A DNA stretch of 64,000 bases from an uncultured delta proteobacterium (GTDB taxonomy: Bacteria; Myxococcota_A; UBA9160; SMWR01), in NCBI GenBank assembly GCA_963832165.1, contig CAWHTE010000011.1, positions 416,001 through 480,000 of the forward strand. Reading direction: 5' to 3'. The translations under genes and the position numbers were made by a program. This document shows positions 5,960-17,293 of this stretch, piece by piece (the stretch's first letter is position 1; each line of letters begins with the position of its first letter). The notes beneath the pieces were generated by a model that searched no databases, was not told the DNA's origin, and saw only the letters and a list, made by a program, of their open reading frames with translations.

Positions 5960-8900
5960 TTATCGGTAGTCGTGCGAGCGCGGCAGATCGCCGTGCGTGC
6001 GCAGCGGGACGAGCTCGCGTACGCGCACGTGGATCACGCCGTCGACCTTCTGGAGCGGACCCGCGATCTCGAGCAGTGCAGCGCCGTGGAGCGCGGAGCG
6101 GAAGCGCTCGAAGTAGTGCGGCGTGAGCACGGCGTTCGAGGTGCCGGTCTCGTCCTCGAGGGTCAGGAAGCAGAAGCCCTTGGCCGTGCCCGGGCGCTGG
6201 CGCACGATCGCGTGGCCGGCCGTGCGCACGAACCGGCCGTCGGGTGCGTCGCGCAGCGCCGCGGCGGAGAGCACGCCGCGCGCGGTGAGCTCCGGGCGCA
6301 GATACTGCATCAGATGCGCACCGGTGGTGACACCGCTGCGCCGGTAGTCGGCGAGCGTCTCCTCGAGTGCGCTCATCTCGGGCAGCGGTGAGTCCTCGCG
6401 CGCGGGATCGACGCGCGCGAGCAACGGCTCGCGCGCGAGCCCCGACACCTGCCACAGCGCCGAACGGCGCGTGCGCGCGCTCGCGTCGATGCCCGCGAGC
6501 GCGCCGAGCTCCGCGAGCGCCGCGAGCTCTTCGGGCCGCGGCCGCACGCGCGCGGCGAAGTCGGCCGCGCTCGCGAACGGCTGGCGCGCGCGCTCCGCGC
6601 CGAGCCGCTCGGCTGTCTCCTCGCGCAGCCCCGACACGAGCCGCAGGCCGAGCCGCACCGCGTTCGCGGCATCCGGCGCCGCTTCGAGCACGCTGCGCCA
6701 CTGCGAGCGCGCCGCGTCGATCGGCAGTACGACGACGCCGTGGCGCTGCGCGTCCTTCACCAGCGTGGCCGCGCTGTAGAAGCCCATCGGCTGCGCGTTG
6801 AGCAGGCCCGCGAGGAAGGCCGCCGGGTGATGGCACTTGAGATAGGCGGAGGCGTAGGCGATCAGCGCGAACGAGGCCGCGTGCGATTCGGGAAAGCCGT
6901 AGAGCGCGAACGAGGTGATGCCGCGCAGGATCTCCTCCTGCGCGCGTTGCCCGATGCCGCGCTCGCACATTCCGGTCACGAGCCTCTGCTCGATCTGGCT
7001 CATCCGCTCCACGGAGCGTTTGAAGCCCATCGCGCGGCGCAGCTCTTCCGCCTCGCCGCCCGTGAAGCCGGCCGCGGTCATCGCGATGCGCAGCAGCTGC
7101 TCCTGGAACAGCGGCACGCCGAGCGTGCGAGCGAGGATCGGCTCGAGCGACGGATGGGGATAGGTCACGGGCTCGCGTCCAGCGCGCCGGGAGAGATACG
7201 GGTTCACCATCTTGCCCGTGATCGGGCCCGGCCGGATGATCGCCACCTCCACCACGAGGTCGTAGAAGCGCTCGGGCTTCATGCGCGGCAGCGTCGCCAT
7301 CTGCGCGCGGCTCTCGATCTGGAACGTGCCGATCGTGTCGGCCTGCCGGATCATCGCGTAGGTGACGGGGTCATCGGGCGGCAGCACCGCGAGATCGATG
7401 TGCTTTCCCTCGTGGACGCTCACCTGTTCGAGCGTGTCCTCGAGCGCCGCGAGCATGCCAAGGCCGAGCAGATCGATCTTGATGATCCCGAGATCGGCGC
7501 AGTCCTCCTTGTCCCACTGCACGACACGGCGATCCGGCATGCGCGCGGGCTCGATCGGCACCACCTCGTCGAGCCGGCCTGCGGCGATCACGATGCCGCC
7601 CGAGTGCTGTCCGAGATGGCGCGGGAGACCGCGCACGCGCGTCACGAGCTCGAGCAGCGCGGCGATGCGCGGCGCCGTCGGGTCGACGCCGGCCTCGCGC
7701 AGCGCGGCGCGCTCGCTTCCTCGATCGTCGGGATGCTCGACGCTCGAGAGCAGTGCCGCGAGGCGCCCGGTGGCGTCCTCGGAGAGCCCGAGCACCTTCC
7801 CCATCTCGCGCACCGCCATCCGCGTGCGATAGGTGATCACCACCGCCGTCATCGCGGCGCCGTGGCGGCCATACTTCTCGAATACGTACTGGATCACCTT
7901 CTCGCGCTGGTCGCCCGACGGCAGATCGATGTCGATGTCGGGCCACTCGCCGCGCTCTTCGGAGAGGAAGCGCTCGAACAGAAGGCCCATCGCCACCGGG
8001 TCCACTGCCGTGATGCCGAGCGCATAACACACGGCGCTGTTGGCGGCCGAGCCGCGCCCCTGGGCCAGCATCGGCGCATCGCGCGCGAAGCGCGCGATGT
8101 CGTGCACGATCAGGAAGTAGCCCGCGAGGTCGAGCTTCTCGATCACGGCGAGCTCGCGATCGAGCTGGCGGCGCGCGCGCGCGGGTACCGGCCGTCCGTA
8201 GCGCTCGCGCGCGCCGTACTCGGTGAGGATGCGCAGGAACGAGGCCTGCGTTTCGCCGGGCGGGATCGGAAACTCCGGGAAGCGGTAGCCGAGATGTTCG
8301 AGCGTGAACGCGCAGCGCTCGGCGATCGCGCGCGTGGCGAGCACCCATTCGGGCCGGTCGCCGAAGCGCGCCGCGATCGCTTCGCGCGTGTGCAGGTGCT
8401 CTTCGGCGTTGACGGCCAAGCGGCGTCCGGCTGCATCGAGCCGCGTCTTCTCGCGCAGGCAGGTGAGCGCGTCGGTCAGCCTGCGCCCCTCGGCGCGCGC
8501 GTGGCGCACGTCACCCGTGGCCACCACGGGCACGCGCGCGTGCGCGGCCAGATCGGCCGCGCGCCGGTTGCTGCGCTCCTGCTCGCGGCGGCCCTGGCGC
8601 GAGACGTCCACCCAGAGGCGCCCCGGAAAGAGCGCGCCCGCGCGGTCGAGCAGCGCGGGCTTGAGGCGGGCATCGCCGCGCACGAGGGCCGTGAGGCCGG
8701 CCGCGTGCTCTTCCACCTCGCTCCAGGAGACGAGCGCTCCTTCCTTTCCAATCCGTTCGTGGCCGCACGTGATCAGGCGCGCGAGGTTGCGATAGCCGCG
8801 CGGCGTCTCGACGAGCAGCAGCAGCGCGTCGGCGCCTGCGTCGGGCTCGCTCCGCGAAACCTGCAGCGTGGCTCCGACGATCGCGCGCAGACCAGCCGCG

Positions 8901-9084
8901 CGCGCTGCCTGGTGGAAGCGCGGGATCCCGTAGAGGCCGCCCCGGTCGGCCAGCGCGAGAGCGCTGTGGCCGCACTCGGCGCGGCCCAGACCAGATCCTC
9001 GGGATTCGACGACGCCTCGAGAAACGAGAACGCGCTGCGGCAGCGCAGCTCGACGTAATCGCACGCCGGGGGGCGAGGGGCCAC
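5960..9084 (-). CDS. dnaE2: Error-prone DNA polymerase DnaE2 (ImuC); one apparent 1-nt frameshift near 8980
   Basis: N-terminus YVELRCRSAFSFLEASSNPEDLV is in ORF 8773..9084. The rest is in ORF 5960..9064: QGRGSAANSAVCY, PDIDID, PRHLGQHSGG, KIDLLGLGML, YGFPESHA, RQRPGTAKG, C-terminal SHDYR (SRDFR-like). Confidence 0.93.
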
Positions 9085-9090
9085 GAAGCG

Positions 9091-9119
9091 ATTTTCGTCT
9101 TTTGTTCGCTTCCGGTCAA
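9091..9119 (-). promoter_or_regulatory. dnaE2 promoter/operator: TTGACC-17 bp-GAAAAT with embedded CGAA-N7-CGAA direct repeat (putative SOS box)
   Basis: Minus strand reads TTGACCGGAAGCGAACAAAAGACGAAAAT-6 nt-GTG; 24/29 identical to the element upstream of imuA. Confidence 0.75.
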
Positions 9120-9189
9120 TCGAAACGACTCAGCCCGAGGCCGAGGCCGACGGGCGAAGCGGAAGGCGACGCCGCGAAGTAGCTCTCGC

Positions 9190-11008
9190 CTAGTTCGATC
9201 CGCGCAATAGCTGCGCGGCGAGCGCCTCGGCCTGCTCGAGCAGCTCCTCGAGCAGGTCGAGGCCGCCGTTCCAGAACGCGGGATCGGCGATGTCGAGCCC
9301 GATCGCGGCGAGCAGGTGCTCCGGGGTATCGGAGCCGCCCGCCTCGAGCAGCGCCAGATAGCGCGGCACGAATCCGGCTCCCTCCTCGTCGTACCGGCGC
9401 AGCAGTGCGAGCACGAGCAGCTCGCCGAACGCGTAGGCATAACAGTAGAACGGCGAGTGTACGAAGTGGGGGATGTAGAGCCACCACCACGCGTAGTCGT
9501 CGGAGAGTGCGACCGAGTCGCCGAACATCGGCCGGTTCGAGTCCATCCAGAGCTCGTTCACGCGCTCGAGCGGCAGCTCGCCCTCCTCGCGCCGCGCCGT
9601 GTGGAGCGCCTGCTCGAAGCGCGTCATCGCGACCTGGCGGAACACGGTCGCGAACGCGTCCTCGAGCTTGCCGCACAGGAGTGCCAGGCGGACCTGCGGG
9701 TCGCTCTCCTCGCGCATCAAGCGCCGGAACACGAGCATCTCGCCGAACACGCTCGCGGTCTCGGCCGTGGTGAGTGGCGTGTCCTGCTCGAACAGACCCT
9801 GCACCGAAGCGAGCGACTGGTGCACGCCGTGGCCGAGCTCGTGAGCGACCGTCATCACGTCGCGCAGGTTGCTCCGTGTAGTTGAGCAGCACGTAGGGAT
9901 GAATCGAGGGAACCGTCGAGGCGGAGAACGCCCCGCCGCGTTTGCCCGGGCGCAGCTCTGCGTCGATCCAGCGCTCGTCGAAGAAGCGCTGCGCGATCTC
10001 GGCCATGCGCGGCGAGAAGTCGCGGTAGGCGCTCGTCACGATCTCGCGCGCCTCTGCGAAGCTGCGCTTCCCGTCGGCGCCGCCGAGCGGCGCATAGCGG
10101 TCGTAGTCGGCGAGCGCGGGCAGCCCGAGCAGGCGCGCCTTGAGGCGGTAGTAGCGCGCCACGAGGTCGTAGCGGCCGACACACGCGTCGAGCAGCGCAT
10201 CGACGCTCTCGCGGCGCGCCTCGTTGGCGAGGTGACGCGCGGCCATCGCGTGCGGATAGCTGCGCCGGCGATCGTCGGCGGCCTTGTCCTGGACCAGGAT
10301 GTTGAAGATGAATCCGAGCACGCGCGCGTTCGCGCGCAGCCCGGCCGACAGCCCGGCCGCCCCGGCGCGGCGCGTCTCGCGGTCGGGGTCGTAGAGCAGC
10401 GCGAGCGTCTCCTCCTCGGAGAGCTTCTGCACCTCGCCGCCGATCGTCACCTCGAACTGGAGGTCGGCCATGATCTGGTCGAACAGGCGGCTCCACGCGG
10501 CGCTGCCCGTGTTGTGGGCCTCGGCGAGCACGCGCTCCTCGGGCTCCGACAGCACGTGCTCGCGGTAGCGGCGCATTCCGGCGAGGTAGTGGCGGCGACG
10601 CGCGAGCTCGGGCTCGGCGAGCAGTGCCTCCGCGCGCTCGCTGTCGGCGGCCAGCCACTCGAGCTCGAAGAAGAGCAGTGCGTTGCGGATCTCGGTGCCG
10701 CGCTCCTGCACGTGCTGGAGCAGTGCGCCGTGACGCGGCGTCTGCGTGTCCGCCGCGAACAGGAGACCCGCGAACGCGCCCGCGCGCGCGGCGGGCTCCG
10801 AGATCGCTTCGATCTCGTCGACCGCGCGCGCGAGCTCTGCGGCGCCGAGCGACGCGACCCGGCCGCGATAGCGCTCCGCGAACGCGGTGGCGGCCGCGAG
10901 CACACCCGCGAGGTCCTTCTCGATCTGCGGGTCGTCGGGGCCCGCGTAGAGATGCGAGAGATCCCAGCGGACGCCCGCCGCAGAGCCGCCCGTTGCCGTT
11001 TCTGACAT
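9190..11008 (-). CDS. pepF: Oligoendopeptidase F (peptidase M3B); frameshift near 9870
   Basis: WDLSHLY N-terminus, RPGKRGGAFS, HPYVLLNY, then in another frame MTVAHELGHGVH (HExxH), AETASVFGE, YIPHFVHSPFYCYAYAFG. Confidence 0.88.
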
Positions 11009-11054
11009 GCATTCCTCGTCGGTGGGAGGCCGAGCATAGTACCCTCGCCGAGCC

Positions 11055-12293
11055 ATGCCGCCCCGTGTCGTGCTCCACGCCGATATGGACGCCTTCTACG
11101 CGTCGATCGAGCAGCGCGATCACCCGGAGCTGCGCGGTCGTCCCGTGGCGGTCGGGGGAGATGGACGACGCGGTGTGGTGTCGGCGGCGAGCTACGAGGC
11201 GCGCCGGTTCGGCGTGCACTCGGCGATGTCCAGCGTGGAGGCGCGGCGGCTCTGTCCCGAGCTCATCTTCGTGCGCGGCTCGATGCGGCGCTATGCGGCC
11301 GAGTCGAAGCGCATCTTCGAGATCTTCGGCCGCTTCACGCCGGTCGTGCAGGGACTGTCGCTCGACGAGGCGTTTCTCGACCTGAGCGGCACCGAGCGGC
11401 TGTTCGGCCCCGCGCGCGGAGTGGCCGAGGCGCTGCGCCGGGCCGTGCGCGACGAGACGCAGCTCGCGGTGTCGGTCGGCATCGCGCCCGTGAAGATGGT
11501 CGCGAAGATCGCGAGCGACCTCGCGAAGCCCGACGGTCTGCTCGAGGTGGCGCCCGCCGACGTGGCGGGCTTTCTCGAGCCGCTTCCGGTGCGCCGGATC
11601 TGGGGTGTGGGACCGGTTGCGGAGGAGCGCCTGCACGCAGCGGGCTTCACCACGATCGGCGAGCTCGTGCGCGCGGATCGGGTCGTGCTCGAGACGCGCT
11701 TCGGTGAATGGGGGCTCGCGCTGGCGCGGCTCGGACAGGGCCGCGATCTCTCCGAGGTGGATCCCTATCGCGACGCGGTCTCCTACAGCGAGGAGAACAC
11801 CTTCGCCGACGACGTGTCGTCACGCGAGGTGCTCGAGGCCGCGCTGATCACGCACGCTGAAGCCGTCGCGCAGCGGCTCCGGCGCGACCGGCTGCGCGCG
11901 CGTACCGTGGTGCTCAAGCTCAAGCTCTCACGGCGCGTCGCACCCGGGCCGCGCGGCTACCCGCTGCTCACGCGCCGCACCACGCTCGCGGAGCCCTCGG
12001 ACGACGGCGCGCTGCTCTCGCGGACCGCGGGCGAGCTGCTCACGCGCGCGGCGCTGCGCGAGCCGGTGCGCCTGCTCGGTGTGGGCGTCACGGGTCTGAT
12101 CAGCGCCGACACCGGTCAGCTCGCGCTGTTCGCATCCCCGCGCGACGCACGGCGCGAACGCCTGAACCGCGCGCTCGATGCGATCGCGGACCGCTTCGGC
12201 AGCGGCGCGATCGTGCGCGGCGACGCGAGGCCCGCCGCGCGTGCGGGCCTATCGCTGCAGCAGAAGCGCGGAGCGGATCCGAAGAATCGGTGA
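11055..12293 (+). CDS. dinB: DNA polymerase IV (Y family)
   Basis: HADMDAFYASIEQRD, SAASYEARRFGVHSAM, SLDEAFLD, AKIASDLAKPDG, VRLLGVG. Confidence 0.95.
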   Translation: MPPRVVLHADMDAFYASIEQRDHPELRGRPVAVGGDGRRGVVSAASYEARRFGVHSAMSSVEARRLCPELIFVRGSMRRYAAESKRIFEIFGRFTPVVQGLSLDEAFLDLSGTERLFGPARGVAEALRRAVRDETQLAVSVGIAPVKMVAKIASDLAKPDGLLEVAPADVAGFLEPLPVRRIWGVGPVAEERLHAAGFTTIGELVRADRVVLETRFGEWGLALARLGQGRDLSEVDPYRDAVSYSEENTFADDVSSREVLEAALITHAEAVAQRLRRDRLRARTVVLKLKLSRRVAPGPRGYPLLTRRTTLAEPSDDGALLSRTAGELLTRAALREPVRLLGVGVTGLISADTGQLALFASPRDARRERLNRALDAIADRFGSGAIVRGDARPAARAGLSLQQKRGADPKNR

Positions 12294-12335
12294 CGGACCG
12301 CGCGCCTCGCGGAGTGCGCGGTTATGATGCCGGCC

Positions 12336-13670
12336 ATGGTGGGTCAGGAAGACCACGCAATCGACGAGGGTCTGCGCGCCGACGATCTGCGCGAGATCTG
12401 GAGCTTCGCCAACCCGGAAGAGAAGGTGGAGGGATTCCTCTCGCTCTCGTTCACCGAGGCCGAGGCGCTGTTCCTCTCGCTCGACACGCGCGCACAGGGC
12501 GAGCTGCTCTTCGCTCTACCCGCGAACGAGCGCAAGCTCTGGGTGCGGCAGCTGCCCCCGGACGATGCTGCCGACGTGTGCCAGAAGGCGCCTCCGGAGA
12601 CGCGCGACGCGCTGCTGCAGCTGCTCGACGATGCGACGCGCAAGGAGGTGTTGGCGCTGCTCGCCTATGCCGAGGACGAGGCGGGCGGGCTGATGAGCCC
12701 GCGCTATGTCCGGCTCCGCCCGGACATGAACGTGGACGAGGCGATCAAGTACCTGCGCCGCGCCGCGCGCGAGCGGGCCGAGACGATCTACTACATCTAC
12801 GTGCTCGATTCCGAGCAGCGGCTGGTCGGCGTGGTGTCTTTCCGCGAGCTGTTCAGCGCGGCGCCCGAGCGCACGGTGCGCGACGTGATGCGCGATGGCG
12901 TGCTCTCGGTGCCCGAAGACCTCGACCAGGAAGCGGTCGCCAACGTGATGGCCGAGAGCAAGCTCATGGCGGTGCCCGTGGTCGACGCGCAGGGCCGGAT
13001 CAAGGGCATCGTGACGGTCGACGACATCGTCGACGTCGTGCGCGAAGAGGCGACCGAGGACATCCAGAAGATCGGCGGCAGCGCCGCGCTCGACGCACCC
13101 TATCTCGAGGTTGGCATTGGGGGGCTGGTGCGGAAGCGCGCGGGCTGGCTCACCGTGCTGTTCCTGGGTCAGCTCCTCACGGCCACCGCGATGGCCTACT
13201 ACGAGGACGCGATCGCGCGAGCAGTCGTTCTCGCTCTCTTCATCCCCCTGATCATTTCGAGCGGCGGCAACTCGGGCTCGCAGGCGAGCACGCTCGTGAT
13301 CCGAGCACTCGCGATGGAGGAGGTGCGCCTGCGCGATTGGTGGCGCGTGTTCGTGCGCGAGCTCGGCACGGGTCTGCTACTCGGACTGATCCTGGGGCTG
13401 ATCGGTCTGTTGCGCATCGTGCTGTGGCCGACGCGCGAGTCGCTCTACGGCGAACACTTCGTGCTGATCGGGCTCACGGTCGCCGTGAGTCTGGTCTGGA
13501 TCGTGGTGTGGGGATCGATCGCCGGATCGATGCTCCCATTCGTTCTGCACCGGTTCGGATTCGACCCTGCGAGCGCGTCGGCGCCGTTCGTCGCGACGCT
13601 CGTCGACGTGACGGGCCTCGTGATCTATTTCAGCGTCGCGACGCTGTTCCTGTCCGGAACGCTCTTGTAG
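12336..13670 (+). CDS. mgtE: Magnesium transporter MgtE
   Basis: AGGLMSP, tandem CBS domains, GIVTVDDIVD, SGGNSGSQ, DPASASAPFVATLVDVTG. Start placed at ATG 12336, 7 nt after TATGAT. Confidence 0.93.
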   Translation: MVGQEDHAIDEGLRADDLREIWSFANPEEKVEGFLSLSFTEAEALFLSLDTRAQGELLFALPANERKLWVRQLPPDDAADVCQKAPPETRDALLQLLDDATRKEVLALLAYAEDEAGGLMSPRYVRLRPDMNVDEAIKYLRRAARERAETIYYIYVLDSEQRLVGVVSFRELFSAAPERTVRDVMRDGVLSVPEDLDQEAVANVMAESKLMAVPVVDAQGRIKGIVTVDDIVDVVREEATEDIQKIGGSAALDAPYLEVGIGGLVRKRAGWLTVLFLGQLLTATAMAYYEDAIARAVVLALFIPLIISSGGNSGSQASTLVIRALAMEEVRLRDWWRVFVRELGTGLLLGLILGLIGLLRIVLWPTRESLYGEHFVLIGLTVAVSLVWIVVWGSIAGSMLPFVLHRFGFDPASASAPFVATLVDVTGLVIYFSVATLFLSGTLL

Positions 13671-13672
13671 CG

Positions 13673-14293
13673 CTACGCGGAGACTGCGCGAGGCGCGCTC
13701 GCGTCGTGCTTCTCCCAGCGATAGATCCGCATCGGGGGCACGTTGAGCAGCTCGGTCTGGACACGCGCGCGGCCGAATACCTCGCGGCCGAGCATGTGCA
13801 CGCGGTCGCGCACCTGATAGGCGACGAACGCGCCGCCGGGCGAGAGCGCATCGTAGACGGAGCGCAGGATGTCGCGGCCGATCGGCATCGCCATGGTCGA
13901 GAACGGGATGCCCGAGACGATCACATCGGGTGTGGGAAGGCCGCGCGCCGCGAGGATCGCGCTGATGTCGACCGCGCTGCCCTGTTCCACGATCAGGCGC
14001 TTGTCGGGCCAGCGGTCGAGGACCTCGACGAAGTGCGGGTTGATCTCGATCGCAAGCAGCTGCGCCTCGGGCTGCATCGCGCGTAGGAGTGCGCGCGTGG
14101 TGCCGCCGGTGCCGGGGCCGAGCTCGACGATCAGCCGGGCGCGGTGTGCGCGCGTGGCGCGCGTGACGCGGCGCTCGAGGAAGCGCGAGCTCGGGATGAT
14201 CGAGCCCACCTGCATCGGCCGCTTGAGAAAGCCTCGAAAGAAGGCGAAGCGGTCGTCAGGCTGCAGTTTCAGTGAGCGATTCGTCTCGGGCAC
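13673..14293 (-). CDS. Phospholipid N-methyltransferase PmtA-like (class I SAM methyltransferase)
   Basis: FFRGFLKRPMQVGSIIPSSRFL, VELGPGTG, IVSGIPF, FVAYQ, LLNVPP. GGAGG RBS before GTG 14293. Confidence 0.8.
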   Translation of the reverse strand: MPETNRSLKLQPDDRFAFFRGFLKRPMQVGSIIPSSRFLERRVTRATRAHRARLIVELGPGTGGTTRALLRAMQPEAQLLAIEINPHFVEVLDRWPDKRLIVEQGSAVDISAILAARGLPTPDVIVSGIPFSTMAMPIGRDILRSVYDALSPGGAFVAYQVRDRVHMLGREVFGRARVQTELLNVPPMRIYRWEKHDASAPRAVSA

Positions 14294-14372
14294 TAGGCGA
14301 TCCTCCCGGGAAAGCGCACCCCTCCGGGCGCGAAGTCGCGCACTGTATAGCCAATCTCCCTTCCATCTTGCT

Positions 14373-15932
14373 TCAATCGTACAGGGCGTCGATCTGCCAC
14401 TCGCGGCGGACGTGGTCGAAGCGCAGCCGAACCACCACACCGTCTTCGCTTTGAACGTCGAACTGATCGAAGGCAAAGCGCTCTTCGGGCGACCACCAGC
14501 CGCCCGTAGTGCGCCAGGGGCCGGCACAGCGCACCACGCGTCCGTTCGCGACCGCGCTGCGGATCCACGCCGGGGACTGCTGCTCTCGGCGCACCACGGC
14601 GGGGACCGGCGGCCGCAGCGCGCGCAGCGCGAGTGCGCCCGTGAAGGACCGCTCCCGCTCGGACGCCGTGCGCGGCGCGGTCGGCGCGAACGGAGCGAGT
14701 GCGAAGGCATCGGGGTGATGGGTATCGACAGCCACGGGTGCGCCCACGCGCGCATCGCCGCACAGGCTCCGCAGCGCGGCGAGCGTCTCGCCGAGCACCG
14801 CCGGGGCTGGCCCGGCAGGGCGGAACAGGTCGAGCTGATCGCGGCGCAAGGGGCTGGCGCGGGTCACGACGCGCACGCCCGCGGCCGGCGCTGCGAGTGG
14901 GCGCGCTTCGAGCGCGTGGCGTGTTAGGCGGACCAGCACGCGCAGGTCGGCGCACGGCGCAGCCATGCCGACCCGGCGCACGTCGCGCGCGCCGTCGGCG
15001 AGATCGAGCGAGAGATCGAGATCTCCGCAGCCCAGGTGCCGAACGCCGAGCCGCTCGAGCAGGCGCGAGAGCAGGCCCTGCAGCACGAACAGGAGCGGCT
15101 CGAGGCGGTCGATCGGCGCTTCCAGATCGATCGCCTCCACGAGCTGCAGCTCGCGCGCTTCGGGCAGCGGCACCTCGGTTGCCTCGCCGCGCGCCATCTG
15201 GATCAACTCGAGAGCGCTCGTGCCGAGCCGGGTGGCGAGGCCGCGGCGCGGCAGTGCGAGCAGGTCGCGCACCGTGTGAACGCCGAAGCGCGTGAGCGCT
15301 TCGGCGAGCGCATCGCCGGGATCGAGCAGATCGATCGACAGCGGTGCGAGGAAGGCGCGTTCGCGCTCCGGGGGCAGGGCGAGCACCCGGCCTCCCGCAT
15401 CCTCTTCGTTCTCGGATCGACACGGAGAGGTGTCAGTCGAAGTGGCGAGCTGGCGCACGGCGATGCGCGCCACGCCGCACGACGAGGCCACCGCCACGTC
15501 GGCGGGCAGGCCGAGTGCGAGGATTCGCGCGGCGAGCGCGGTGGCGAAGCCGGCTTCCGAGCGGAACAGCGCTCCGGTGCCCTCGGCATCGACGAAGACG
15601 GCGGCCTCGGTGGCGAAGACGCCGCCGCAGCGCGGCGCGAGCGCGGCGCGCGGTGCACACGAGAAGGCGGCATCGAGCAGCGTGTCGCGGGCGGCCTGCT
15701 CGAGCGCCGGGGAGGCCACGCGCACCGCGAGCCCTGCGCACAGGCTGCGCGCGTGGGCGGCGCTGGTTCCCGCGCACACGCCCGCGCGCGCCGCCGCTCG
15801 CGACACACACAAGAGCTCGGCGCGCGGACTCGCGCCGTCGGCGATCGCGAGCGGGCGGCCGTGCAGCTCCGGGTGCGCGCGCAGCTCGGCCGAGAGCGGC
15901 AGGTCGGCCACGCGCGCGCACGCGATCCTCAT
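14373..15932 (-). CDS. imuB: ImuB, inactive Y-family polymerase of the mutasome
   Basis: Degenerate Y-family fold lacking the catalytic acidic motifs, QLDLF beta-clamp motif, C-terminal GPWRTTGGWW...YD. ATGA overlap with imuA. Confidence 0.88.
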   Translation of the reverse strand: MRIACARVADLPLSAELRAHPELHGRPLAIADGASPRAELLCVSRAAARAGVCAGTSAAHARSLCAGLAVRVASPALEQAARDTLLDAAFSCAPRAALAPRCGGVFATEAAVFVDAEGTGALFRSEAGFATALAARILALGLPADVAVASSCGVARIAVRQLATSTDTSPCRSENEEDAGGRVLALPPERERAFLAPLSIDLLDPGDALAEALTRFGVHTVRDLLALPRRGLATRLGTSALELIQMARGEATEVPLPEARELQLVEAIDLEAPIDRLEPLLFVLQGLLSRLLERLGVRHLGCGDLDLSLDLADGARDVRRVGMAAPCADLRVLVRLTRHALEARPLAAPAAGVRVVTRASPLRRDQLDLFRPAGPAPAVLGETLAALRSLCGDARVGAPVAVDTHHPDAFALAPFAPTAPRTASERERSFTGALALRALRPPVPAVVRREQQSPAWIRSAVANGRVVRCAGPWRTTGGWWSPEERFAFDQFDVQSEDGVVVRLRFDHVRREWQIDALYD

Positions 15933-16627
15933 TCTTCCGCAGCGGCGCGCAACTGCACCGCGGCCGGAGGCCCCGGCCGCCCGCGGCGCTGGCGCGCGAT
16001 CGCCACCTCGATCTCCAGCCCTTCGAACAGGCTCGGGGTACCCGTGAAGCGGGCGCGGGTCGGCAGGAGCTGCAGCGCGAGGTCGGCGTTGGAGCCCGTG
16101 ACCCGCCGCAGCGAGACCACGATCAGCGCGGTTCCCCCCGCCGCCGCAGCGCGCGTGAGGCGCTGCCAGGTGGCCGCGGGCAGCGACTCCCACTCCGCGT
16201 CGCATCCCGCCGCGTCGAGCAGCACCGCTGCGAAGCCGCGCGCCCGGAGCAGGCGCTCGCTCGCGCGCACGGCCGCGGAGACACCCGGTGGGCGCGCCCA
16301 CAGCACCCGCTCGAGCTGCACCCCCGCACTGCGCGCGGACGCGGGGTGGAACGCGTCGGCGGAGTCGACCACCGCGACCACCTCTCCGGCCTCGGTCGCG
16401 CGCGCGAGCAGCGCGAGCGCCAGCGAGGTGCGGCCCGAGGAGGGCGGCCCGTGGAACTCGCACAGGCGGCCGCGCGCGAGCCCTCCGCCCAGCAGCGCAT
16501 CGAGCGCCGGAATGCCCGTCGCCAGATCGACGCGGGGCTCGCGGTCGGATCCTCCGCGCCGCACCTCGGACCCGAGGTCGTGCAGCAGGCGCGCGAGATC
16601 AGGACGCTCGGGGGAGGGGAGAGGCAT
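15929..16627 (-). CDS. imuA: ImuA, RecA-like mutasome subunit
   Basis: TGIPALDALLGGGLARG, GPPSSGRTSL degenerate Walker A, AVVD..DAFHP..A..AGV.LERVLW. Directly upstream of imuB. Confidence 0.85.
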   Translation of the reverse strand: MPLPSPERPDLARLLHDLGSEVRRGGSDREPRVDLATGIPALDALLGGGLARGRLCEFHGPPSSGRTSLALALLARATEAGEVVAVVDSADAFHPASARSAGVQLERVLWARPPGVSAAVRASERLLRARGFAAVLLDAAGCDAEWESLPAATWQRLTRAAAAGGTALIVVSLRRVTGSNADLALQLLPTRARFTGTPSLFEGLEIEVAIARQRRGRPGPPAAVQLRAAAEE

Positions 16628-16636
16628 GGGAGGCCT

Positions 16637-16665
16637 ATTTTCGTCTTATATTCGCCTCCCGGCAA
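16637..16665 (-). promoter_or_regulatory. imuAB promoter/operator: TTGCCG-17 bp-GAAAAT with CGAA-N7-CGAA direct repeat (putative SOS box)
   Basis: Minus strand reads TTGCCGGGAGGCGAATATAAGACGAAAAT-9 nt-ATG; near-identical to 9091-9119. Confidence 0.75.
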
Positions 16666-16672
16666 CTTCCGT

Positions 16673-17293
16673 CTATCGGCCCTCTTTGATCCTCACCCGC
16701 CTTCCCTCGACGGCGAGCCGCCCTTCGGCGATCAGCCGGATCGCCTCGGGCACCAGCCGGCGCTCCGCGGCCTGTACGCGCGCGGCCAGCGTCTCGGGGG
16801 TGTCGTCGTCGCTTACCCGCACCGCTTCCTGGAGGATGATCGGCCCGTGGTCGTACTCGTCGTCGGCGAAGTGGACCGTCGCGCCCGTCACCTTCACTCC
16901 CGCCTCGAGTACCGCCTCGTGCACGCGGTGGCCGTAGAAGCCGTGGCCCGAGAATGCGGGGATCAGTGCCGGGTGCACGTTGATCACGCGGCCCGCGAAG
17001 CGATCGCGCGGCTCGAACGGGGAAAGGAAGCCGAGCAGCGCGACGAGGTCGATTTCGAAGGGCGCGAGCGCGCGGTGCAGCGCATCGTTGAACGAGCGCA
17101 CGTCGCCGTGCTCGCGCCGCGGCACCGCGAGCGCGGGCACCCCGCGCCGCGCCGCGCGCGCGAGCCCGCCGGCGGTCGATTTCGAGGCGATCACCACTGC
17201 GACGCGCGCGGGCAGCCCCGAATCGATGTGCTCGAACAGGTTTTCGAGGCTGGTTCCCTCGCCCGAGAGCAACACGGCAACCTGCAACGGCAC
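16673..17293 (-). CDS. purN: Phosphoribosylglycinamide formyltransferase
   Basis: VLLSGEGTSL, INVHPALIPAFSG.G.YG..VH, TGATVHF.D..YDHGPII.Q. Confidence 0.93.
   Translation of the reverse strand: MPLQVAVLLSGEGTSLENLFEHIDSGLPARVAVVIASKSTAGGLARAARRGVPALAVPRREHGDVRSFNDALHRALAPFEIDLVALLGFLSPFEPRDRFAGRVINVHPALIPAFSGHGFYGHRVHEAVLEAGVKVTGATVHFADDEYDHGPIILQEAVRVSDDDTPETLAARVQAAERRLVPEAIRLIAEGRLAVEGRRVRIKEGR

Follow-up and report, generated by a model that had tools for sequence, protein, structure and literature searches.

The 64,000-nucleotide (nt) stretch of DNA analysed here, referred to as the window, comes from an uncultured delta proteobacterium of the UBA9160 class (contig CAWHTE010000011.1, positions 416,001 to 480,000). 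Its minus strand encodes the imuA-imuB gene pair and, separated from it by an insert, dnaE2. Each half of this cassette is preceded by one copy of a 29-bp sequence in which a predicted binding site for the repressor LexA lies across a promoter (Table 1). The two copies are identical at 24 of 29 positions and rich in A+T (59% at dnaE2 and 55% at imuA, in a genome of about 69% G+C), and they end 6 nt before the GTG and 9 nt before the ATG of the genes that follow. These values, reproduced from the coordinates, agree with a preliminary description of the window. When the 5.5 Mb genome was searched, each 29-mer was the other's top match and the runner-up reached only 20/29.

Table 1. Features of the dnaE2 and imuA-imuB loci (window positions) and the other high-scoring matrix matches of the genome (positions prefixed C1 or C7).
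Feature	Position	Strand	Details
dnaE2 promoter	9091..9119	-	-35 TTGACC at 9119-9114, 17-bp spacer, -10-like GAAAAT at 9096-9091; transcript likely leaderless
Predicted LexA box at dnaE2	9093..9109	-	GCGAA-N6-CGAAA form; 30.9 bits, genome rank 2
imuA-imuB promoter	16637..16665	-	-35 TTGCCG, 17-bp spacer, -10-like GAAAAT
Predicted LexA box at imuA	16639..16655	-	Tandem repeat; 32.0 bits, genome rank 1
Matrix match	C1:771939		27.4 bits; promoter of radical SAM, SplB-like gene
Matrix match	C1:265173		25.5 bits; between ruvX and pgpA (divergent), head of pgpA-cinA-thpR-recA block
Matrix match	C7:676979		20.0 bits; overlaps start codon of an unrelated gene
Matrix match, lexA (full-length)	C1:851718		19.9 bits; repeat inverted, begins on last base of TTGACT hexamer
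dnaE2 (imuC), error-prone DNA polymerase	5960..9084	-	NCBIfam error-prone polymerase model, 1211 bits (cut-off 939); frameshift near 5' end
imuA, RecA-like, 232 aa	15929..16627	-	NF033429, 59 bits, under cut-off of 150
imuB, Y-family-like, 519 aa	14373..15932	-	Intact; Pfam IMS match; overlaps imuA stop
dinB, DNA polymerase IV	11055..12293	+	Between imuB and dnaE2, opposite strand; no upstream box (best -2.8 bits)
Oligoendopeptidase F-like (pepF-like)	9190..11008	-	Within imuB-dnaE2 insert; frameshifted near 9872
mgtE magnesium transporter	12324..13670	+	Within imuB-dnaE2 insert
Phospholipid/ornithine-lipid N-methyltransferase-like	13673..14275	-	Directly behind imuB; 5' end approximate
purN	16673..17293	-	Upstream neighbour; stop 8 nt ahead of imuA -35 hexamer

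The -35 and -10 hexamers of Table 1 are consensus matches, not mapped transcription starts. In a sigma-70-like scan of positions 8900-17000 the dnaE2 site was the sole match (one found against 0.1 expected); the imuA site has its hexamers at the same 17-bp spacing but fell below the threshold of that scan. The CGAA-N7-CGAA direct repeat described at the same time is indeed present at both sites, but the core alone is too frequent to be diagnostic: it occurs 213 times in the genome and seven times in the window, against 3.1 expected, and 6 of 100 shuffles reach seven. Since the bare core is not rare, it is the longer, A-rich unit, which is rare, and the place where it stands that carry the signal. 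In its conserved form that unit reads TTTCG-N6-TTTCG and thus repeats in tandem every 11 bp.

For the genome-wide search the core, being too common, was replaced by a matrix whose 104 training sites all came from relatives (27 imuA, 26 dnaE2 and 51 lexA) and were picked by the CGAA-N7-CGAA core. This returned 31 matches above 13 bits in the genome, six of them at 19.5 bits or more, with the imuA and dnaE2 sites in first and second place. At 25 bits or more the real matrix gave four matches, whereas 12 column-shuffled matrices gave none or one. The prediction that an SOS box would recur before lexA and recA was borne out, in that one match stands at lexA and another at the head of the pgpA-cinA-recA block; the 300 bp directly upstream of recA itself contain no box (best 3.4 bits). 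Here recA was identified by search, and cinA and thpR were named by reading the sequence of the locus. Likewise, the SplB-like gene has a Pfam Radical_SAM match and a weak SPL match under the cut-off, so that this label, like that of the intein mentioned below, is a reading of the sequence. Judged from these matches, the regulon looks small, comprising lexA, the recA operon (or the divergent ruvX), imuAB, dnaE2 and the SplB-like gene.

Conservation of the sites was examined in relatives with a site cut-off of 16 bits; each gene had matches in 36-60 genomes, of which the 29 best-scoring loci were used. An upstream site was found at the SplB-like gene in 23/29 relatives and at the recA operon in 17/29, both of these genes being outside the matrix training. 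The sets that were partly in the training gave 29/29 for imuA, 28/29 for dnaE2 and 57/80 for lexA, and in-gene control sequences gave no sites in any set. The conservation that the preliminary description had proposed as a check is thus present at each of these genes. Moreover, the lexA upstream repeat occurs in 48 of 50 loci belonging to the UBA9160 class or its nearest LexA relatives. A scan of 152 upstream regions for all 4-mer dyads, made without a prior motif, ranked CGAA-N8-GAAA and CGAA-N7-CGAA at the top. The latter was present in 120 of the 152 regions, and the count dropped to five when the spacing was 6 and to four when it was 8; CTGT-N8-ACAG was absent (0/152). The strict 17-letter pattern was found in 59 of 61 genomes, with 268 matches against 42 for a reversed control.

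Sixty further motif loci were inspected, taken from 150 listed of the 268 matches with known coordinates left out. Thirteen of these stood at lexA, two at dnaE2, and one each before a UvrD-type helicase and a DEAD-box helicase; nine preceded members of an HNH family (in six genomes), four a small protein and one a higB-type pair. The other loci either could be assigned to no gene or fell within unrelated ones, and a good part of them, lying in coding regions, were treated as noise. In some relatives, then, the regulon looks to include in addition the HNH-type family, helicases and the small uncharacterised protein, and the last of these is a candidate new SOS gene. The HNH family is multicopy, its members are 600-700 aa long with a C-terminal HNH-like motif, and the box at its nine loci in six relatives is strong. 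The small protein, with a box upstream in four relatives, has the motif VxVPVYxPF and belongs to no Pfam family. The higB-type toxin gene, in the relative G043, has a partner with an IrrE/M78 domain and lies behind a TTGAC promoter with a box. Five promoter-plus-box sites have no clear protein gene downstream and could drive small RNAs or short peptides.

The repeat has a common orientation and register at imuA and dnaE2, as it would if the shared sequence were a promoter only, be it a sigma element or a copy from the splitting of the operon, with no repressor involved. The promoters themselves are uniform: 53 of the 58 imuA and dnaE2 loci have 17 or 18 bp between the -35 and the -10, and all 54 resolved -10 hexamers start with GAA and end with T. 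The first ATG or GTG lies most often 6 nt past the -10 (15/27 imuA and 11/27 dnaE2 loci), which suggests that the imuA and dnaE2 transcripts are leaderless. The arrangement of the cassette is likewise in keeping with a copied promoter. Among ten loci picked to span the order (in which pepF was mapped by its C-terminal half only), nine are split, with dinB separating imuB from dnaE2, and all nine carry a second box before dnaE2; in the single unsplit locus (G044) dnaE2 starts 13 nt after imuB and there is no second box. This comparison indicates that an ancestral imuA-imuB-dnaE2 operon was probably broken up by the insertion of dinB and other genes, with the imuA promoter being copied to dnaE2 in the process, and that the near-identity of the two 29-mers is likely that of a copied promoter kept under selection. 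The duplicated promoter that had been set down as the case against an SOS box is therefore the probable origin of the dnaE2 copy, but it is an incomplete account of the motif, which is also found elsewhere.

At those other genes the repeat does not behave as a promoter element. It is forward at imuA (28/29) and dnaE2, whereas the SplB-like gene, the recA operon and the majority of lexA genes have it in the opposite orientation; at the recA operon it lies upstream of the -35 and at the other genes over the -35/-10 spacer, and several lexA genes carry extra copies downstream of the promoter. A promoter element cannot move and invert in this way, and a promoter without a repressor is accordingly a very unlikely explanation. 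The same facts tell against the alternative sigma factor considered in the preliminary description. The two half-sites keep a fixed distance, and the dyad that they form lies on or next to the promoter in both orientations and at differing places relative to the -35, so that it behaves as an operator.

The LexA protein encoded in the genome is intact, with a winged helix-turn-helix domain and an S24 peptidase domain (PF01726 and PF00717), the Ala-Gly site, and the catalytic Ser and Lys when aligned to E. coli LexA. Covariation between its recognition helix (numbered as in E. coli LexA) and the motif upstream of lexA was examined at 164 scanned lexA loci, of which 160 distinct ones were kept after removal of duplicates and one frameshifted locus. 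The pattern TTCG-N7-TT[C/T]G was present at 116 of 129 loci with Thr42, at none of 26 with Gly or Ala42 and at none of five with Ser42. In genomes of the same phylum whose LexA has the STNGV helix of the Myxococcus xanthus type the repeat was absent (0/13) and GTTCAG was present in 11 of 13. Ten acidobacterial LexA proteins carry Ala or Gly42, in nine cases together with Asn41, and in all ten the lexA promoter has a repeat of TTCAC in the place of the TTCG one (10/10), and two with an SLGTxQNY helix have a TTACG repeat. In addition, TTCGG in both half-sites was found at all seven loci with Glu45, as against 3 of 96 with Lys45 (counting repeat-bearing loci) and none of 12 with Arg45; those Glu45 TTCGG loci with informative titles are from Gemmatimonadota. 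Three smaller groups were seen in the same set. The acidobacterial TTCAC repeat also goes with Ser42, making eleven loci in all with Ala, Gly or Ser42; three acidobacterial lexA loci with Ser42 have TTCG repeats at a 10-bp period; and three loci with a Thr42 helix, exceptions to the covariation, carry a different pyrimidine-rich promoter element, TTTTTC..TTCTC.

The nearest relatives of the LexA protein are from Myxococcota, Myxococcales or deltaproteobacteria (with some Spirochaetales), followed by Acidobacteriota and Gemmatimonadota; outside the class the nearest are from Acidobacteriota. With other genomes of the phylum carrying the Myxococcus-type LexA, Myxococcota is the likely phylum. 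A quick tree parts the LexA of the class from the Myxococcus type (support 97); its place in that tree is between rows of Acidobacteriota and Gemmatimonadota, with weak support (80-88). This placement is suggestive of acquisition of the class LexA by transfer. No LexA relative was found in viral contigs.

It is improbable that the repeat is the site of some DNA-damage regulator other than LexA, for instance of the XRE, WYL or S24 type, with lexA and recA among its targets. LexA-independent damage regulators do exist (PMC9578287), and in M. xanthus most genes induced by ultraviolet light are not direct LexA targets (PMC9705874). The present genome, moreover, encodes a second LexA-type DNA-binding protein (281 aa; C11:639549-640391, minus strand). 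A regulator of this kind, which the preliminary description had allowed for, fails to explain why the motif tracks the LexA helix, as it does at the same lexA-promoter position in several clades. The second LexA-type protein, the one alternative candidate whose spread over genomes was traced, was itself considered as the binder and rejected: it has no peptidase domain and an unrelated C-terminal part, and it is found in only 2 of 61 genomes, against 59 of 61 for the motif. Its gene is divergent from a luciferase-like gene.

Weighed together, the sequence evidence makes it very probable that the tandem repeat is an operator bound by the LexA of this lineage over the imuAB and dnaE2 promoters, where DNA damage would relieve the block. 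The preliminary description had favoured a variant direct-repeat SOS operator, and the sites at lexA and the recA operon and their conservation support it. The genes concerned, namely the recA operon, the translesion polymerases and the splB-like gene, belong to the core of known SOS systems, in which lexA, recA, imuA-imuB-dnaE2 and splB are documented members (PMC8565304). A LexA dimer would bind the two half-sites, one helical turn apart, with its DNA-binding heads in tandem. At imuA and dnaE2 the bound protein would cover the spacer and the -10 and so exclude RNA polymerase. RecA-stimulated self-cleavage of LexA is the general mechanism of release (PMC9578287), and the same step would be expected here to free the promoters after damage and induce the genes.

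A number of observations weigh against this assignment. Two Binatia-type loci and G099 are among the 13 Thr42 loci without the motif. Because related genomes have helix and motif in common, the covariation counts are not independent events; the helix groups coincide for the most part with clades of the quick tree, and the data amount to a handful of events rather than 160 observations. In the matrix search, shuffled matrices gave 0-6 matches at 19.5 bits, with one reaching six, and one of the top six matches, C7:676979, sits on the start codon of an unrelated gene. The site assigned to the recA operon lies between two divergent genes and is often degenerate in relatives, with the strict dyad in 6/29; at most of these loci as many as three half-sites follow one another more loosely, shortly before TTGAC. 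The further sites that had been anticipated before uvr or ssb genes did not appear: in this genome neither a 300-bp nor a 1500-bp search range turned up a site at uvrA, uvrB, recN, ssb, ruvC or dinB (best 9.1 bits). Finally, the HNH family, with six copies in this genome, and the small protein (C1:187342) are without a box here, unlike their counterparts in relatives.

Direct-repeat LexA boxes are already known, and what is described here is a new sequence variant in a lineage outside the literature covered. Such boxes are reported for Alphaproteobacteria (PMC8565304, PMC9578287, PMC3323433, PMC2248561) and for Balneolaeota, with Patescibacteria and Acidobacterium added through cited work (PMC7739468, which lists LexA direct-repeat operators as having evolved several times). 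The alphaproteobacterial SOS box, GTTC-N7-GTTC (PMC9578287 Table 1, PMC8565304, PMC2248561 Table 5), resembles the present one in being a direct repeat with an 11-bp period, an A/T-rich spacer and a TTC core, and in its control of lexA, recA and imuABC. The layout of the footprint is the same (PMC2248561 Table 5), the spacer is A-rich in both, and the dnaE2 site even reads GAAC-N7-GAAA. On these grounds the sites could be considered weak copies of the alphaproteobacterial GAAC-N7-GAAC box, and the case fully known, but this is barely credible. GAAC-N7-GAAC occurs in 2 of the 152 upstream regions, against 120 for CGAA-N7-CGAA, and GTTC-N7-GTTC in 2/2 alphaproteobacterial reference promoters but 1 of 129 Thr42 loci. 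The first G of GTTC is replaced by T in 78/86 first half-sites and 62/86 second half-sites, a 3' G is added, and the recognition helix is SVATVHKH here as opposed to SKSG[V/I]HRL in Alphaproteobacteria.

The comparison with direct-repeat boxes made in the preliminary description stands as regards the direct repeat and its 11-bp period; the closest boxes, however, are those of Patescibacteria and Acidobacterium, and not only the alphaproteobacterial one. Work by Sanchez-Osuna, Barbe and Erill in 2017 reportedly gave TTCGG-N6-TTCGG as the LexA motif of Patescibacteria and noted a likeness to the LexA of Acidobacteria. Compared at the level of this consensus, that box has in common with the present one the LexA direct repeat, the TTCG core and the 11-bp period. 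It differs in that TTCG is here followed for the most part by C or T and preceded by T, and the helix has Lys45; the GG form after TTCG is confined, among repeat-bearing Lys45 loci, to the 3 of 96 given above. As to the affinity of the LexA itself, a Parcubacteria cluster ranks fourth in the Atlas at 0.97, level with Actinomycetota clusters. For Acidobacterium capsulatum, the LexA box is said to be GTTC-N7-GTTC, from work by Mazon et al. in 2006. Of 49 acidobacterial lexA promoters, among which A. capsulatum was not identified, 27 carry TTCG-N7-TT[C/T]G, like the present box, whereas none carries GTTC-N7-GTTC, the conserved letters being shifted by one base.

The remaining known boxes are less similar. 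That of M. xanthus, CTRHAMRYBYGTTCAGS (PMC9705874), belongs to the same phylum and to a small regulon, and its GTTC lies as far behind TTGA at lexA as the second TTTC does here; its helix, STNGV..H, and the box are nevertheless different, and the repeat is missing at lexA from the 13 genomes of that type. The Gram-positive Cheo box, CGAAC-N4-GTTCG (PMC9578287 Table 1), shares CGAA in the half-site, and the Bacillus helix SSSTVHGH has Thr42, Val43, His44 and His46 as here, but it is a palindrome with a 4-bp spacer and not a tandem repeat, and the GAAC-N4-GTTC dyad occurs in 1 of the 152 upstream regions. In the literature searched there was no report of TTTCG-N6-TTTCG for Myxococcota or Acidobacteriota, although supplementary motif tables may contain it; the available parts of PMC3789691 and PMC3108266 hold nothing on this motif.

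Several features of the neighbourhood were also recorded. The frameshift in dnaE2 is likely to be an assembly error caused by a sequencing indel, because 27 of 29 relatives read across the stretch concerned (8980-9084) in one frame or have long open frames, and because other genes in the assembly are broken too. In the pepF-like gene, contigs from four sequencing runs lack one base at 9872-9873. The thpR gene and the intein region on C1 are broken in the assembly in the same way, probably by long-read indels. The N-methyltransferase-like gene behind imuB may be co-transcribed with imuAB. The imuA, dnaE2 and SplB-like genes, predicted to be leaderless, often start with C-rich codons, giving Ser/Pro-rich N-termini; these starts may have been left behind when promoters were copied, or the 5' ends may need to stay unstructured. 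An apparent intein interrupts the cysteine motif of the SplB-like radical SAM gene (C1:770148-771935, minus strand), which would put an intein in a damage-inducible gene, and lexA lies near a divergent groES-groEL pair (C1:848968-851718) both here and in several relatives.

A wider reading can be put forward tentatively, and we regard it as possible rather than probable. In it, a single LexA subfamily, spread over the UBA9160 class, Acidobacteriota, Gemmatimonadota and probably Patescibacteria, would read head-to-tail half-sites one turn apart by a residue-to-base code, in which Thr42 specifies TTCG, Asn41 with Ala or Gly42 specifies TTCA, and Glu45 specifies TTCGG as opposed to TTCG[C/T] for Lys or Arg45. 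The class would have given up a Myxococcus-type LexA in favour of this subfamily and assembled a minimal mutagenesis regulon anew, and the GTTC-N7-GTTC of Acidobacterium would be a special case shifted by one base. If this is true, single helix swaps would reprogram LexA specificity, and the resulting change of SOS box would be directly testable.

What is new is the small regulon and the testable helix-to-base covariation; the kind of operator being known, this is a solid extension rather than a surprise. The motif provides a usable SOS box, and with it an initial outline of the regulon, for a class represented here by metagenome-assembled genomes only, in a phylum in which two different LexA systems coexist. 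Moreover, LexA proteins whose boxes differ by one or two bases along with one or two helix residues form a natural series that can serve as a test set for change in operator specificity, and the same series bears on how a two-fold symmetric repressor binds direct repeats.

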